A program made the translations under genes and the position numbers. A DNA stretch of 64,000 nt, taken from the IMG/VR virus record IMGVR_UViG_3300022719_000071, positions 192,001 to 256,000 of that record. One strand, written 5' to 3'. The notes under the pieces are model-generated. The model saw only the letters and a list, made by a program, of their open reading frames with translations, was not told the DNA's origin and ran no database searches. Shown here piece after piece: positions 22,036-62,314 of this stretch. Source of the DNA: a virus. Taxonomy: Duplodnaviria > Caudoviricetes. Position 1 is the first letter of the stretch, and the number at the start of each line of letters is the position of its first letter.

Positions 22036-23458
22036 AGATGAAGTCAACGTCAGGGTAAAAGGACTTGACCCCGAGGCTATGAGTAAAGCACAGGAGGCAC
22101 TGACCTTCTGGGTTCCTGGCTACATTCACATGCCTGCTTACAAACTTGGTAGGTGGGACGGTAAGATTCGTCTGTTCAAGGCCAGTGGGGCTACCTATCT
22201 CAATTTGGTTGACCGCATCGTTGATCCTCTTAGTCAGCTTGGGTACGACATCGAGATCCAAGAGGATAAGAGGCAGACTTATGATGATCTAGTCGAGAAG
22301 ATTGAATTTATCAATGAGTTGGTTGTTTCTGAGTACGAGAAGGATGGCAAGCCTATTATCCTCTGGGAGCATCAAGTCAATGCTGTCAATAAGGGTATTG
22401 AAAATGGCGGTGGCGTCTTGGAACTAGCCACGGGTAGCGGAAAGACTATCATCTGTGGTGTGTTGTCAAAAATTTATTCCGAGGTTGGTAATGTTGTTGT
22501 CATCGTCCCAAATATTGATCTTGTTGTTCAGACCCAATACACCTTCAAGCAAATAGGTATTGATGCTGGTATGTGGTATGGTGAAATCAAGGATCGAAAG
22601 ACTGTCACCATTGCCACTTGGCAATCTCTAGATCATTTCCCGGAGTTGTTCTCCGGAGTGATGACAGTCATTGTAGACGAAGTTCACCAAGCGAAGGCAA
22701 AGGTACTGAACGAGATGTTGTCCGGTCCAGCAGCCAATGTACCGTTTAGATTTGGCTGCACTGGAACCTTACCCAAGGAAGACTTGGCACGTAGCCAAAT
22801 CTTGGCCGTCCTTGGAGAGACCATCTTCACTCTTCGCTCATGGGAATTGCAGCACAAAAACATTCTAGCTAAAGCTCAAATATATCAGATGAGATTGAAG
22901 GACTCAAAGAATAAGTCCTATTTGGTGTCATGTGATCATCACGAAACATGGTCCGATGAATTGAATTGGATATTCACCGACAAAGATCGTGTTCTTTACA
23001 TGGCCGAGACCATCCGTGAAGTAGCGAATAACATGGGTAACACGTTGGTTCTTGTTCAATACAGGAAACACGGCAAGATTCTAGCTGAGGCACTTCCGGA
23101 AGCCACATCTCTTGACGGAAGAGACAAAAATCGTACCGAGGTTTACGATAAATTTAATCAGGGCGATAACAACGTATTGATCTGCACGTTCGGTATTGCA
23201 TCTACTGGTATTGACATTCCACGTATCTTCAATCTAATTATTATAGAGCCCGGTAAGAAGTTTGAGAAGGTTATGCAAACGCTCGGTCGTGGTCTTAGAA
23301 GAACCGATGACAAAACGCATCTCACCGTGTTTGATATCTGTGGTGATTCCGGTCTCTCCAAGAAGCACGCAGCAACAAGACGTAGCTTATACAAAGAAGC
23401 GAAACAAAAATTCGAAATCATTGAAGTGGAGTACAAGAATGTTAGTTCTGACAGTTGA
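22010..23458 (+). CDS. uvsW: UvsW-like superfamily 2 DNA helicase
   Basis: LATGSGKT, VIVDEVH, FGCTGT, TGIDIPRI, QTLGRGLR; YKLGRWDGKIRLF N-terminus. Confidence 0.92.
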   Translation: MPTAKLIIEDEVNVRVKGLDPEAMSKAQEALTFWVPGYIHMPAYKLGRWDGKIRLFKASGATYLNLVDRIVDPLSQLGYDIEIQEDKRQTYDDLVEKIEFINELVVSEYEKDGKPIILWEHQVNAVNKGIENGGGVLELATGSGKTIICGVLSKIYSEVGNVVVIVPNIDLVVQTQYTFKQIGIDAGMWYGEIKDRKTVTIATWQSLDHFPELFSGVMTVIVDEVHQAKAKVLNEMLSGPAANVPFRFGCTGTLPKEDLARSQILAVLGETIFTLRSWELQHKNILAKAQIYQMRLKDSKNKSYLVSCDHHETWSDELNWIFTDKDRVLYMAETIREVANNMGNTLVLVQYRKHGKILAEALPEATSLDGRDKNRTEVYDKFNQGDNNVLICTFGIASTGIDIPRIFNLIIIEPGKKFEKVMQTLGRGLRRTDDKTHLTVFDICGDSGLSKKHAATRRSLYKEAKQKFEIIEVEYKNVSSDS

Positions 23459-57724: not shown

Positions 57725-58834
57725 ATGCAAACATACCCGACCCTGTACTCTCGTGACACCATTGGCAACATCCGTGTCTGGTGGATGGAACGTGATGGTT
57801 TTCACTATCGCACCGCATCTGGTATCAAGGATGGAGAGATCGTGCATTCGGAGTGGCGTCGTGCGTACGTGACGAACCAAGGCAAGGCCAACGAACGTTC
57901 CGCCGAGATCCAAGCCGACGCCGAAATCAAATCGTCATACGACAAGAAGCTACGCATGAAGTACCACGAGGCTGAGGCTGACGTGGACAAGGACAAGTAT
58001 TTCAAGCCGATGCTCGCCAAGGAGTTCGGCAAGGAAACTTCCAAGAAGGGCGTTTCCTTCCCCGTGCACAGCCAACCGAAGCTGGATGGCATTCGTTGCC
58101 TTGTCACCGCCGAGGGTGCATGGTCCCGCACAGGCAAGCCTATTCTGGCGATTCCGCACATCCTGGAGGCCCTGGCTCCACTGTTTGCGAAAGACCCCGA
58201 TCTAGTACTCGACGGCGAGCTGTACAATCACGACCTGAAGGATGACTTTAATACCATCACGTCCGTGGTTCGCAAACTGGAGCCTAATCCCGAGCAGCTT
58301 GCTGATTCAGCACGCCTGATTCAGTATCACGTGTACGACTGTCCGTCCGTGGATGGATCATTTGAAATTCGCATTAATACTCTGGTTGCTCTGCTGATGA
58401 ACATGCCCGAGTGTGTCGTTCTGGTGGACACGCAGTTTGTGTTGGATCAGGAGACTCTGGATTTCTTGTACGCTGAGTACATGAAGAACGGCTACGAGGG
58501 ACAGATGGTGCGCCTGGGTGGAACCTACGAGCAGAAGCGCTCGAAGTTCCTATTGAAGCGCAAAGAGTTCAAGGATGCCGAGTTCGAGATCGTGGAGGTA
58601 AAGTCGGGGCAAGGGAATTGGGAAGGTTACGCCAAGACCCTGACCGTGCGTCTTCCTGACGGCAGAACGTGCGATTCGGGTATGCGTGGTAATCAGCAGT
58701 ACCTGAAGGAAGTACTGGAGAACGCTGACTCCTATGTCGGCAAGCAGGCGACCATTCGCTACCAGGATCTGACTCCGGACGGCAAGCTTAGGTTTCCTGT
58801 TGCCGTGGCGCTGCACCTGGAGGAGCGCTGGTGA
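57725..58834 (+). CDS. lig: ATP-dependent DNA ligase
   Basis: QPKLDGIRC (KxDG), LDGELY, YHVYD, GYEGQMVR, LLKRKEFKDAE, LRFPV. Confidence 0.95.
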   Translation: MQTYPTLYSRDTIGNIRVWWMERDGFHYRTASGIKDGEIVHSEWRRAYVTNQGKANERSAEIQADAEIKSSYDKKLRMKYHEAEADVDKDKYFKPMLAKEFGKETSKKGVSFPVHSQPKLDGIRCLVTAEGAWSRTGKPILAIPHILEALAPLFAKDPDLVLDGELYNHDLKDDFNTITSVVRKLEPNPEQLADSARLIQYHVYDCPSVDGSFEIRINTLVALLMNMPECVVLVDTQFVLDQETLDFLYAEYMKNGYEGQMVRLGGTYEQKRSKFLLKRKEFKDAEFEIVEVKSGQGNWEGYAKTLTVRLPDGRTCDSGMRGNQQYLKEVLENADSYVGKQATIRYQDLTPDGKLRFPVAVALHLEERW

Positions 58835-59022
58835 GCGAAATGAAGAAGCCTACTGACATCATTGTTGATATTCATCGTGAACTTGAGGCTCTTGCGGAGG
58901 CTGCTGTACAGGAACAGCATGCTGATGCCAGCCGTGTTGATAGCACACTCGACTACTACGAGGATGAATTTGCGAAATGGATCGTAGCCAAATTTAAGAA
59001 GGAAGTTCTAGATGAAAATTAA
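58831..59022 (+). CDS. Small acidic hypothetical protein
   Basis: 63 aa, GGAGG RBS, coupled to both neighbours. Confidence 0.55.
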   Translation: MSEMKKPTDIIVDIHRELEALAEAAVQEQHADASRVDSTLDYYEDEFAKWIVAKFKKEVLDEN

Positions 59023-59368
59023 GGTCTTTCTGGACGACGTGCGTAAGGAGCCTGTTGGATGGGTACGGGCGCACACGGCCCAGGACGCTATCGAGTGGCT
59101 TCAGGAGAGAGAGGTAAGCCACATCAGCCTGGACCATGACCTGGGTTCAGAAGAGGCTGGTACTGGCTACGACGTGTTGAAGTGGATTGAGAGGGAGGTC
59201 GCCATGGCTGGTTATGAGCCTCCGCACATGACCATTCATTCTGCCAATCCAGTGGGTCGTAAGCGCATGGAGATGGCGATCCAGAGCATCCTGCGTCTGT
59301 ATGAGGTAGCTAACATGGAGTACCAGGAGGATGGATATAGCGGCCCTGGTGAAGATAATTGGGACTAA
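59012..59368 (+). CDS. Cyclic-phosphate-processing receiver-like domain protein
   Basis: VFLDDVR..P.GW, ISLDHDLG, TGYDVLKWIE, IHSANPVGR.RM. Confidence 0.7.
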   Translation: MKIKVFLDDVRKEPVGWVRAHTAQDAIEWLQEREVSHISLDHDLGSEEAGTGYDVLKWIEREVAMAGYEPPHMTIHSANPVGRKRMEMAIQSILRLYEVANMEYQEDGYSGPGEDNWD

Positions 59369-59372
59369 CCTC

Positions 59373-59401
59373 TTGACTTCTTGTTGGGACAATGATAAAT
59401 A
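59373..59401 (+). promoter_or_regulatory. Hybrid promoter of tRNA/ncRNA cluster 2
   Basis: TTGACT-N17-TAAATA. Confidence 0.7.
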
Positions 59402-59404
59402 TAG

Positions 59405-59630
59405 ACTGTGCATTGCTTAGTAGCGGTCTACCACGGGATACACCGGGAGGAGTGAACGCAGTGTGACCGAGTGTGAAGATTCAGACGGCGACCTGTGATG
59501 TGTCAATTCTAAGCAGGAAAGCCCTCTGACATAAGACGTTTGTATCGGATCACTTGAAGAATTGACTGTAACTCACGGCAGCCAGATAAAGGCAGGTTCG
59601 TGAGCGGTGGGATGGAAGTTCCCGCCTATT
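59405..59630 (+). ncRNA. Candidate structured ncRNA (unknown class) upstream of tRNA-Asp
   Basis: No ORF; long-range helices GTCAATTCT/AGAATTGAC and CTCACG/CGTGAG; terminal GGTGGGA-TGGAAGT-TCCCGCC hairpin. Confidence 0.5.
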
Positions 59631-59632
59631 AC

Positions 59633-59710
59633 GGTTGTGTAGCTCAATCTGGTTAGAGCACTCCCCTGTCACGGGAAAGGTTGAGGGTTCGAATCCCTTC
59701 ACGACCGCCA
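59633..59710 (+). tRNA. tRNA-Asp(GTC)
   Basis: GGTTGTG/CACGACC; anticodon arm CTCCC-CTGTCAC-GGGAA; GAGGG-TTCGAAT-CCCTT; G-CCA. Confidence 0.9.
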
Positions 59711-59831
59711 ATTTAGAGAAACACATCGCCTGTCTGAGCTTTGTGTGGGGACCATACCACTAGGTTGATAGTGGACAGACCGAGACCACGGGCTTATGTC
59801 ACGTGGGATGCAATGGAAGTTTGCAATTAAT

Positions 59832-59910
59832 GGCCCGTTAGCATAGTCTGTCCTAATGCGCCAGCTTGTCACGCTGGAGATCAAGGGTTAGAATCCCTTA
59901 CGGGTCGCCA
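59832..59910 (+). tRNA. tRNA-Asp(GTC), variant copy
   Basis: GGCCCGT/ACGGGTC; anticodon arm CCAGC-TTGTCAC-GCTGG; T-loop TTAGAAT; D-loop lacks GG; G-CCA. Confidence 0.72.
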
Positions 59911-59939
59911 AGTTTTTGGCCAACATGGAAGTTCCTTGT

Positions 59940-60078
59940 CAACGTGGTATCAGCGTAAATGACGGGTCGGCCAAGGGGAGTTGTGTGACTTCACTCTCGC
60001 CAAACTCTCTGGAAGGAGAGCTAATATTAAAAGGCCGAAAAGTGATACTGGAGTTCTGTGATTGAATACTCCATTTAA
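59940..60078 (+). ncRNA. Candidate multibranch structured RNA (unknown class)
   Basis: Nested helices GGTATCA/TGATACT, TCGGCC/GGCCGA, GGGAGT/ACTCTC, CTCTC-TGGAAG-GAGAG, then TGGAGT/ACTCCA. Confidence 0.45.
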
Positions 60079-60080
60079 CC

Positions 60081-60188
60081 ATGGTTTTGTTTGTGAAGTT
60101 CGATCACCCGGTGCCTGGGGTTACAAGGCTGATTATGGTTTTGTTTGTGAAATTCGATCACCCGGTGCCTGGGGTTACAAGGCTGATT
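60081..60188 (+). repeat. Tandem duplication of a 54-bp unit
   Basis: 60081-60134 and 60135-60188 are identical except one base (GAAGTT vs GAAATT). Confidence 0.95.
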
Positions 60189-60287
60189 TTTGCTTTAAAA
60201 TAGATATTATTTTATTATAAAAGTCACCGTGACTGCGACTGGATGAGGAAGCCATTTCGCAGATTCCTATGGAAGTTGGGTAAGTTT

Positions 60288-60364
60288 CAGGGTATAGCTC
60301 AGACTGGTAGAGCGCTCGTTTCGGATACGAGAGGCCGCAGGTTCAAATCCTGCTACCCTGACCA
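60288..60364 (+). tRNA. tRNA-Pro(CGG)
   Basis: CAGGGTA/TACCCTG with A73; anticodon arm CTCGT-TTCGGAT-ACGAG; GCAGG-TTCAAAT-CCTGC; CCA. Confidence 0.9.
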
Positions 60365-60366
60365 CG

Positions 60367-60389
60367 ACATGGCGTAGCTCAGTCTGGTT
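60367..60389 (+). pseudogene. Truncated 5' fragment of a tRNA
   Basis: ...ATGGCG-TAGCTCAGTCTGGTT (acceptor strand plus D-arm start) breaks off 14 nt before the stop of the convergent LamG gene. Confidence 0.5.
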
Positions 60390-60402
60390 TCTAGGTGGAT
60401 TA

Positions 60403-61236
60403 TTACGGGAAGATTCCGAATGCACCAGCGTTATAGTGATTTAAAACCTCTGTTGGTGTGAGCACACGATCATAGATAGCAAGTTCATCCACAATACCTT
60501 CTAGTGCTGTAGCAGGCTGTGGTCCCTGCAACGATCCATTGTTATATTCGTTTCCAATCAAACCTCCTGGTGCTTGACCGGAGACTGGTGTGTATTTAAT
60601 ATCACCAGTCTTGGTATCACTGGCGTCGAGTACTCCGTTGACGTAGAGAATACGACTTCCAGAGGTATATGTTCCAACCACGTGATATATTGAGCCTGCC
60701 GGAAAGACATTTCCTTGAAGGTAAGCATTACCTGCGGTGTTTTGGTTAGGACCATCAACGGTACCGAGATAGAAACGGAATGTACCAACGTTAAATCCGT
60801 AAATTAATTTGTATCCAGAGAAATCCAAAGTGCTCCCTGAAGCGTATTGAATGAGCGCTTCGTTCACATTGGGTGGTTTACACCAACATTCGATGGAAAC
60901 CGTCTTGGTTGGTTCCAAGATGGAACTCTGACCAAAGTTCCAATGGTCTGCTAGGGCGTTGTTACCCCCGACTGCTCCATCATTATCTGAAGCACCAGAA
61001 ATTAATCCAGGCTCACCGTAACGCATAGGAGCACCATTCTCAGTAGCTGTGAAACCATTACCCGAAGAATCAGCCAAAGTAGGACCAGAAGATTCACCAG
61101 CACGCCAGTAAGCAATTGGACCATCTTGTAGAATCAGAGATTCATAGGTCATTGGGCCGGATGGACCCAAACTGAGTATACCGCCGTTACTGACAATAAT
61201 TGAAGAACCGTTTTCGATTATAATTATTCCAGACAT
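60403..61236 (-). CDS. LamG/concanavalin A-like lectin domain protein, late; candidate virion decoration
   Basis: PIAYWR..E.SG....DSSGNG, SIECW, YHVVGTY, LYVNGV, F/LEG.VDELAIYDRVLT..EV..HY; TAAATA at 61262 (-); ATG 61236. Confidence 0.82.
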   Translation of the reverse strand: MSGIIIIENGSSIIVSNGGILSLGPSGPMTYESLILQDGPIAYWRAGESSGPTLADSSGNGFTATENGAPMRYGEPGLISGASDNDGAVGGNNALADHWNFGQSSILEPTKTVSIECWCKPPNVNEALIQYASGSTLDFSGYKLIYGFNVGTFRFYLGTVDGPNQNTAGNAYLQGNVFPAGSIYHVVGTYTSGSRILYVNGVLDASDTKTGDIKYTPVSGQAPGGLIGNEYNNGSLQGPQPATALEGIVDELAIYDRVLTPTEVLNHYNAGAFGIFP

Positions 61237-61298
61237 TTGAAATTTCCAAGTTCTTTTGTTATATTTACTGTTCCATCTTAACAACTCGGTCATTAGTC

Positions 61299-61733
61299 AT
61301 GCAAAACCCAGATCCTCATAATCGAGGCATGGAAGCTGTCAAGCTTGCTCATCAATACACCTGGAGACAACAGAAGAGGCTGTTCCCGGTTACTGTTGGC
61401 ATCCTGACATGGATGATGGGATACAGCTTGCTGACGTTCAGCTTTTTCCCTCTGTTTCAACTCAACATCCTTTCGTGGGTAATACTTATGGCCATTATGT
61501 TTTTGACCAGGAAAAAACTGAACGAAGAATTTCTTGAATACTTGAAATGCCAGAGAATTGGAAAAGAGATGGACTGGAAGACGGTCGTCTATAACGGATG
61601 GTTGAACTATGCTGCCACGCTAATCTGCCTGTATTGGGTTTTGATGATCGCTTGGATTTCGTTCTTTATGCCGGAAGGTGGAATCTATGAACTTTACGAG
61701 ATGGATCCCACCAACAAACCCTTGACTTCCTAA
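61299..61733 (+). CDS. Multi-pass membrane protein
   Basis: Three to four hydrophobic segments; 144 aa. Confidence 0.65.
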   Translation: MQNPDPHNRGMEAVKLAHQYTWRQQKRLFPVTVGILTWMMGYSLLTFSFFPLFQLNILSWVILMAIMFLTRKKLNEEFLEYLKCQRIGKEMDWKTVVYNGWLNYAATLICLYWVLMIAWISFFMPEGGIYELYEMDPTNKPLTS

Positions 61734-61752
61734 CCCTAACTACCTATAAATA
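61722..61752 (+). promoter_or_regulatory. Hybrid promoter of tRNA cluster 3
   Basis: TTGACT-N17-TATAAATA. Confidence 0.75.
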
Positions 61753-61949
61753 CAACATGCAACGACGGTATCCTGTCGCATTGTGTTTACCATCATAAAG
61801 TGTGCACACTTTATTGATGAGAATGAGGCTTTTTATGTGAGATTTTGCGCCTCGTGTTATGGACATAATAAGTTTGTCATAGCACACCAGACATTGAATC
61901 TGGGTAAGCAGCAACCTATTCATTCATTAATGGGAATGAAGTTGTACCA

Positions 61950-62022
61950 GCTTAATGGTGGAATGGTTAGACACATCTGGTTTAAAACTAGACACATTGC
62001 AGGTTCGAATCCTGCTTAAGCA
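61950..62022 (+). pseudogene. Degenerate tRNA-Leu(TAA)
   Basis: Leu-type D-arm TGGTGGAATGGTTAGACAC; anticodon arm TCTGG-TTTAAAA-CTAGA; GCAGG-TTCGAAT-CCTGC; only a 6-bp acceptor, no long variable arm, no CCA. Confidence 0.65.
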
Positions 62023-62102
62023 ATTGGATAAATCATCACCGTGACTGCGATGGAGGATACATACGCAGATATCGATGGAAGTTCGATAAAATTGCAGACA
62101 CT

Positions 62103-62181
62103 CAGGGTATAGCTCAGTCTGGTCAGAGCGCTGGTCTTGGGAACCAGAGGTCCGCAGGTTCGAATCCTGCTACCCTGACCA
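62103..62181 (+). tRNA. tRNA-Pro(TGG)
   Basis: CAGGGTA/TACCCTG with A73; anticodon arm CTGGT-CTTGGGA-ACCAG; GCAGG-TTCGAAT-CCTGC; CCA. Confidence 0.92.
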
Positions 62182-62314
62182 AATCTTGTACTAAATGCTT
62201 ACAAGAAAAGTCGTTAACCGAATTTCCGGATTAGGAGTCGATCCAAAGGGACTTATCAATCATGGTGTAATCGGCACATATTCAGAACTCATGGATATTC
62301 AACGGGAGATCCGA

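Follow-up and report, generated by a model that had tools for sequence, protein, structure and literature searches.

The 64,000-nucleotide (nt) stretch of DNA analysed here, hereafter the window, comprises bases 192001-256000 of the 360-kb virus record IMGVR_UViG_3300022719_000071 (Duplodnaviria; Caudoviricetes), a phage genome that is estimated to be 91% complete and holds 42 tRNA genes. At 59.4-62.2 kb of the window, ARAGORN identifies a tRNA cluster in the order tRNA-Asp, tRNA-Asp, tRNA-Pro(CGG), a short UAA tRNA without encoded CCA, and tRNA-Pro(UGG). Both tRNA-Pro genes are preceded by a leader of about 60 nt, in which a conserved 5′ block is followed by two hairpins, P1 and P2, and it is almost certain that this leader is a real, selected structured RNA. 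It matches no RNA family catalogued in Rfam, and its role is tentatively placed in the maturation of the adjoining tRNA.

Leader copies in the tRNA cluster

The leaders of the cluster and the tRNA genes that they precede all lie on the plus strand. The leader of tRNA-Pro(CGG) occupies positions 60222-60287, as defined by alignments and by a covariance model, R1, which scores it at 58.2 bits. Its 5′ block TCACCGTGA (60224-60232) runs into P1, formed by 60233-60238 with 60257-60262, which is followed by the joint AT and by P2, where 60266-60269 pair with 60277-60280 around the loop 60270-60276; a linker of 7 nt then leads to the tRNA gene at 60288-60364, which has C1 and A73, encodes its CCA, carries U at position -1 and is recognized by both ARAGORN and the Rfam tRNA model (68.9 bits). 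The leader of tRNA-Pro(UGG), at 62034-62102 (R1 57.4 bits, tRNA ends), is built from a 5′ block at 62036-62044, a P1 of 62045-62050 with 62062-62068 in which A62063 is bulged, and a P2 of 62071-62075 with 62083-62087 around the loop 62076-62082, with a 15-nt linker to the tRNA gene at 62103-62181, which encodes CCA and has U at -1 (ARAGORN, Rfam tRNA model). This second leader occupies the spacer behind a tRNA-Leu(UAA)-like gene without encoded CCA (61949-62023, plus strand; ARAGORN, Rfam tRNA model and end inspection), whose 3′ end lies 12 nt ahead of the conserved block.

A reading of this DNA made from the sequence alone, here called the sequence-only reading, had described a shared TCACCGTGACTGCGA, a CTGCG/CGCAG stem, an AT and a UGGAAGU hairpin on differing stems, in front of two tRNA-Pro genes of different anticodon, and this description holds base for base. 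The 15-mer is present exactly at 60224-60238 and 62036-62050 and has no other exact copy in the window or the 360-kb genome; in both copies it is followed by the stem CTGCG(A)...(T)CGCAG, then by AT and by the hairpin with the TGGAAGT loop, whose stem is CCTA/TGGG in the first and ATCGA/TCGAT in the second. By our own estimate, chance would produce roughly two pairs of identical 15-mers in 64 kb, and the 15-mer match by itself therefore proves nothing. The whole leader arrangement is far beyond chance, with R1 scores of 58 and 57 bits against 12 bits at best for an unrelated site of the genome.

The association with tRNA-Pro stood for both Pro genes and proved not to be confined to them, as divergent copies also precede both tRNA-Asp genes. 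Over the 360-kb genome R1 finds exactly four copies, all in this one cluster, and its alignments extend the 5′ block to the Asp leaders, which lay outside the training set. The leader of the second tRNA-Asp (59777-59831; 25.4 bits, E 0.0023 genome-wide) has the block GACCGAGA, a P1 of CCACGG/C-A-CGTGG (59786-59791 with 59800-59806, A59801 bulged) and a P2 of TGCAA/TTGCA (59809-59813 with 59821-59825) around the loop 59814-59820. The leader of the first tRNA-Asp (59561-59632; 22 bits, E 0.016 genome-wide) pairs CTCACG with CGTGAG in P1 (59572-59577 with 59599-59604) and GGTGGGA with TCCCGCC in P2 (59606-59612 with 59620-59626; loop 59613-59619), and its minimum-energy fold consists of exactly these two hairpins (z -2.97). 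The corresponding tRNA-Asp(GUC) genes, recognized by ARAGORN and the Rfam tRNA model, lie at 59633-59710 (copy 1) and 59832-59910 (copy 2). A count of the loop sequence gives the same picture: TGGAAGT occurs at 87 sites in the genome, five of which have flanking stems of at least 4 bp (about 2% of arbitrary 7-nt windows have stems of this kind), and four of these five fall within 2.5 kb on the plus strand, 6, 6, 7 and 15 nt 5′ of the tRNA starts (both Asp, both Pro), all four with an A-T closing pair.

Covariation in distant relatives

Metagenomes were scanned with a pattern consisting of ATGGAAGTT and, 12-32 nt further on, a tRNA D-arm signature, which returned 59 loci, ten of them with the leader layout; the motif scan yielded 18 further copies on ten contigs, denoted here by L numbers. 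These contigs have a gene order in common (Asp, Asp, Pro, a small membrane-protein gene, a CCA-less tRNA with a Leu or Gln anticodon, Pro), and their neighbouring proteins share 24-67% identity with those of the window genome over locally aligned segments, so that they represent distant members of the same clade of uncultured giant phages. Because the P2 loop is nearly invariant while the proteins of the host contigs share just this much identity, selection on the leader can be inferred. The relatives are short contigs and the 22 copies stem from about ten genomes, including near-duplicates (L360/L376, L349/L382 and L356/L359), so that counts of alignment cells overstate the number of independent events, a bias that weighs less on the numbers of pairs and of pair types.

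An alignment of 17 Pro leaders made with MAFFT aligns cleanly on three conserved blocks, and RNAalifold, run unguided on it, predicts exactly two helices, P1 (7 pairs with one bulged base) and P2 (4 pairs with a 7-nt loop). In this alignment 97.3% of the cells are paired, and 8 of the 11 pairs change on both sides (35 cells), while shifted registers pair in 21-42%. R1, the covariance model built from the MAFFT alignment, recovers three further copies in the relatives, two of which precede an apparent decayed tRNA. With all 22 copies fitted to the model, 97.9% of the cells pair and 47 are changed on both sides; as this alignment was fitted to R1, the 97.3% of the independent MAFFT alignment is the safer figure. 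Shifted-register controls over both alignments pair in 14-52%, and none of 500 shuffles reached the observed pairing percentage or covariation score in either alignment. The suggestion of a functional motif of about 55 nt, conserved in structure over sequence, is thus supported by 20 further copies, two in this genome and 18 in distant syntenic relatives, which give the two-hairpin model strong backing.

The consensus of the 22 copies begins with a block N-C-R-C-Y-N-N-R-A ahead of P1, which is single-stranded in the model and has U as its consensus first base (UCRCYNNRA). P1 contains an invariant C-G/G-C step beside the bulged base, mostly A, and its distal part is variable, with 10-35 nt whose sequence is not kept; the GGA noticed in this first loop is a feature of this phage that relatives do not conserve. 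P1 and P2 are separated by 1-3 nt, rich in purines, and P2 has an invariant closing A-U pair and a nearly invariant 7-nt loop, U-G-G-R-A-R-U, occurring as UGGAAGU, UGGAAAU and UGGGAAU, with U1 and A5 kept in all. By eye, no consistent pairing partner of the 5′ block was found in the tRNA 5′ end, the P1 loop or the trailer, and RNAalifold on whole leader-tRNA units predicts no further helix and supports no junction or pseudoknot. ARAGORN and the Rfam tRNA model find no cloverleaf in the leader, and its classification as a tRNA or tRNA pseudogene was rejected.

The non-standard pairs of the alignment comprise six G-U cells and no A-C cell, and therefore it is the tRNA-sense strand that folds, which favours an RNA over a symmetric DNA feature. 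This bears on the view that the leader has no function at the RNA level, having either arisen when leader and tRNA were neutrally duplicated or serving as a DNA hairpin, such as a promoter or origin element. The window's two Pro leaders are indeed closer to each other than to the leaders at the corresponding positions in relatives, which points to a recent copying event, or to gene conversion, in this genome. Neutral duplication without covariation in homologues, the outcome against which the sequence-only reading had set its proposal, nevertheless fails, as covariation is found in distant syntenic relatives; the sense-strand wobble argues in the same direction, and kept loops on variable arms are the opposite of a protein operator. 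An account without RNA function is already largely refuted and retains hardly any probability.

The invariant AUG in ATGGAAGTT could instead mark the start of a mini-open reading frame (Met-Glu-Val...) serving as a leader-peptide attenuator, since short frames (MEVG*, MEVR*, MEVRIGV*) follow it and several relatives have a stretch rich in purines 2-4 nt upstream of it. Against such a peptide, all nine bases of ATGGAAGTT are kept, wobble positions included, whereas the length and sequence of the peptide are not, and the covariation of the stem falls inside the supposed codons. There is no enrichment or run of Pro or Asp codons, and no conserved upstream start, Shine-Dalgarno sequence or terminator, the copies of the window being without any Shine-Dalgarno sequence. 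Of all the explanations weighed, this one is the hardest to credit.

Small ribozymes are common near phage tRNAs, and the compact conserved structure with its invariant unpaired bases might be read as a small self-cleaving ribozyme that trims the precursor beside the tRNA. The comparative evidence supports just two plain hairpins and neither a junction nor a pseudoknot, and a search relaxed to E up to 10 matched none of the ribozyme families in Rfam (hammerhead, twister, pistol, hatchet, HDV-like). As the gap between leader and tRNA ranges over 2-17 nt, a ribozyme that cuts at a fixed site could not be what generates the 5′ end of the tRNA. Self-cleavage is given a very low probability.

The family has so far been encountered only in this clade. 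Exact scans of IMG/VR with CGCAGAT..TGGAAGT, the 15-mer and more specific patterns gave chance matches only, the sole known IMG/VR copy being that of the window's own record. Loci reached through the cREC and ligase genes, which are at most 52% identical, contain 103 tRNAs without the motif, and R1 finds none there. Exact-protein look-ups led only to identical copies of this phage in other samples, among which the tRNA cluster is invariant. One pattern scan of the 185,579 species genomes of GTDB gave three chance matches and no family member, and the leader is therefore not a bacterial element. In Rfam 15 the matches at gathering score are to tRNA only, and at E up to 10 over 59300-62300 none falls on the leaders. 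In a literature search that covered the loop sequence, hairpins in tRNA leaders and the processing of tRNAs in jumbo phages, no relevant work was found.

Position beside the tRNA genes and possible roles

All 22 copies lie on the tRNA strand, 2-17 nt 5′ of a tRNA or tRNA remnant, and in five copies the linker from P2 to the tRNA is only 2 nt. In the relatives, 16 of the 18 copies abut a tRNA-Pro gene and the other two precede an apparent decayed tRNA. In L359 (2025-2158) and L356 (1429-1570) an extra leader is followed by about 60-70 nt resembling a decayed tRNA and then by a second leader with an intact tRNA-Pro(UGG), which indicates that leader and tRNA duplicate as one unit. The base at -1 is U in all 20 copies before tRNA-Pro or a remnant, and C and T in the window's two Asp copies; C1, A73 and an encoded CCA are features of every intact Pro gene, and in the RNAalifold prediction U(-1) pairs with A73 and so lengthens the acceptor stem. 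The leaders of the first tRNA-Pro stand behind an AT-rich stretch, about 200-310 nt past the second Asp gene, and those of the second start 1-12 nt past the CCA-less tRNA and therefore fill the entire spacer.

Among the processing element, ribozyme and regulatory switch offered by the sequence-only reading, processing or recognition fits this anatomy best, and nothing positive speaks for a ribozyme or a switch. The leader would then be a cis-acting leader or spacer of the precursor tRNA (pre-tRNA) with a role in maturation of the adjoining tRNA, an interpretation that we put forward tentatively, giving it slightly less than an even chance. As to transcription, excision, partner and effect on maturation, we infer that the leader is transcribed within the pre-tRNA, as 5′ leader or inter-tRNA spacer. 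Its 3′ end would be set by the RNase P cut at the tRNA C+1, 2-17 nt past P2, and its 5′ end by 3′ processing of the upstream CCA-less tRNA or by the transcript start. The P2 loop, T-loop-like in sequence, and the P1 bulge may together form the surface that a trans factor recognizes. This factor, which could be RNase P, a different processing enzyme or a protein of the phage, would control or mark how the neighbouring tRNA matures.

T-loops are known in the tRNA T-arm, RNase P, stem I of the T-box and the L1 stalk. The P2 loop UGGRARU would resemble them in having U1, A5 and a purine at position 4, and a 7-nt loop on a stem of 4-7 bp corresponds to the size of a T-arm; it differs in its closing pair, A-U as opposed to G-C, and in positions 2-3, GG as opposed to psi-C. 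The signature itself consists of U at position 1 and A at position 5, forming a reverse Hoogsteen pair in a pentanucleotide (PMC4810234). No partner loop was identified for the P2 loop. In a more specific version of the processing account, the leader would be a dedicated maturation signal: its T-loop-like hairpin would dock beside the acceptor stem and either attract or keep away RNase P or a factor of the phage, so that the phage would control if and when its own tRNA-Pro, and here also tRNA-Asp, is released. This version is doubtful; if true, it would represent a tRNA-specific cis control that we have not found described in the literature.

Several points weigh against a role in maturation. 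Some tRNA-Pro genes of relatives have no leader (L378:1200, L381:1274), and expression of tRNA-Pro therefore does not depend on it. In bacteria, the protein component of RNase P binds the leader of its substrate, and a hairpin 2 nt from the cut, as in the five copies with the shortest linker, could hinder cleavage. No candidate partner protein was found among the neighbouring genes, and Pfam searches of the downstream neighbours gave no RNA-binding or nuclease candidate, with two sub-threshold methyltransferase matches only. The minimum-energy folds of the Pro leaders by themselves miss the proposed structure and are no better than those of shuffled sequences (z +0.10 and -1.51), so that the proposed two hairpins rest on comparative evidence and not on the thermodynamic fold. 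The T-loop comparison, lastly, amounts to a likeness of sequence only.

The same anatomy might also yield a trans-acting small RNA, released by tRNA punctuation, that serves as a decoy or sponge for an RNA-binding protein reading the ANGGA-like P2 loop or that acts by loop-loop pairing. Like the leader, as proposed here, the stable co-transcribed non-tRNA RNAs of the phage T4 tRNA cluster (species 1 and 2, RNA C/D) and the spacer-derived small RNAs of bacterial tRNA operons, such as 3′ETS-leuZ, are small structured RNAs that lie between tRNA genes in the same precursor and are freed by tRNA-processing enzymes. The leader differs from them in its invariant hairpin loop and in standing consistently 5′ of a single tRNA species throughout the clade, and it is not known to resemble them in sequence or structure. 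Protein decoys typically present one and the same loop on stems that vary, the leader fills the full inter-tRNA spacer before the second tRNA-Pro, this phage has four copies in 2.5 kb, and the further conserved RNA in the same cluster (see below) is reminiscent of the stable non-tRNA species of T4. Conversely, the strict abutment to tRNA-Pro in distant relatives argues for a link in cis, and no complementary target was identified. On balance a trans-acting RNA is possible and rather unlikely.

Within this alternative, the loop AUGGAAG holds A-N-GGA, the core of the CsrA site, and sponges of the CsrB/RsmZ type, which present CsrA- or RsmA-binding hairpins, share with the leader the GGA in a hairpin loop (P2) with an A two bases upstream (AUGGA). 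CsrA binds strongly through two sites, whereas each leader offers a single conserved GGA, the P1 loops of most relatives being without one, and the phage genome has no CsrA gene. A CsrA/RsmA sponge would be expected to have several loop GGA motifs, spaced so that a dimer can bind with both faces; as only that of P2 is kept, this idea finds hardly any support.

Hairpins that act in cis on the nascent transcript are also known from antitermination, namely the two adjacent ones of HK022 put and the conserved-loop hairpin boxB of lambdoid nut sites. By analogy, the leader might modify or pause RNA polymerase and so carry transcription through the untranslated tRNA cluster; its two stem-loops, 1-3 nt apart, resemble put RNA, and it would lie within long untranslated transcripts exposed to Rho. 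The leader shares with put the two neighbouring stem-loops and with boxB a hairpin that would be recognized by its loop, and differs from both in its site before tRNA genes, in its several copies per cluster, and in the lack of sequence likeness and of an antitermination context. It stands 2-17 nt from tRNA starts and not near operon starts, and a single 2.5-kb cluster may contain as many as four copies; the second tRNA-Pro is often directly followed by a promoter-like TTGAC, so that nothing downstream needs read-through, and no terminator is evident downstream. An antitermination role is improbable, and a cis-acting part in maturation remains the preferred reading.

Surroundings of the leaders and biological meaning

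Other parts of the cluster are conserved or structured as well. Between the second tRNA-Asp and the first Pro leader, window positions 59911-60080 form another conserved non-coding segment, with counterparts in L334 (3204-3469), L360 (6399-6651), L376 (133-383) and L378 (1501-1756). It contains a long-range helix GGCCAAC.../...GTCGGCC (GGCTGAC/GTCAGCC in L334) and an inner hairpin of the GGGAAG type, and the fifth ATGGAAGTT of the window (59925) is part of this segment and not of the leader family. Downstream of it, just before the AT-rich stretch that precedes the first Pro leader, 60081-60188 holds two tandem 54-bp units, 98% identical, each with a CCCGG-TGC-CTGGG hairpin and without counterpart in relatives. 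The whole cluster is headed by a strongly folding leader of about 220 nt that is free of open reading frames (59410-59632; -70.7 kcal/mol), which starts past a promoter-like TTGACTT...TAAATATA site and whose last ~70 nt, behind an upstream part at 59410-59560, are the leader module of the first tRNA-Asp.

Behind tRNA-Pro(CGG), a tRNA 5′ fragment (GGCGTAGCTCAGTCTGGTT) at 60372-60392 abuts the end of a minus-strand gene (60403-61293) for a 296-residue Laminin_G_3/ConA-like protein, and relatives are without such a gene at this place; it looks like an insertion that truncated a tRNA gene. The tRNA upstream of the second Pro leader measures 72-75 nt and has no long variable arm. Its anticodon is UAA in the window (61949-62023), and orthologous positions in relatives are occupied by CCA-less tRNAs with UAG or UUG (among them L334 4282-4353, L349 247-318, L356 1355-1427 and L386 667-740). 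A short CCA-less tRNA is odd for tRNA-Leu, and may be a non-standard tRNA or a mere processing signal.

Directly upstream of the cluster, 57725-59368 encodes an ATP-dependent ligase (369 residues) and a cREC_REC 'cyclic-phosphate processing receiver' protein (118 residues), which may constitute an RNA-repair module. The closest cREC relative, 67% identical, is on a 1.2-kb contig of another metagenome (L328) that ends before the tRNAs, and there a similar promoter and leader start follow the gene. A 154-residue protein encoded downstream has a 96%-identical variant on a 43-kb JGI contig. Elsewhere in the genome, at 22700-22777 and 277334-277409, ARAGORN predicts one tRNA of the suppressor type that reads amber codons (anticodon CUA) and one whose anticodon has four bases (CUUA), which hints at stop-codon or frameshift decoding in this phage. 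The ends of the record, at about 14-60 and 360322-360370, are nearly identical in sequence, which suggests a terminal repeat or a circularly closed assembly.

Giant phages harbour large sets of tRNAs, and almost nothing is known of their expression and processing. Comparative support for the leader is unusually clean, and the leader accompanies particular tRNA genes in a clade in which protein sequences have become divergent. It may be a new protein-binding RNA and is short enough for direct biochemistry; its length of about 60 nt, its invariant loop of 7 nt and its bulged A make it a concrete handle on how phages may control the maturation of their tRNAs.

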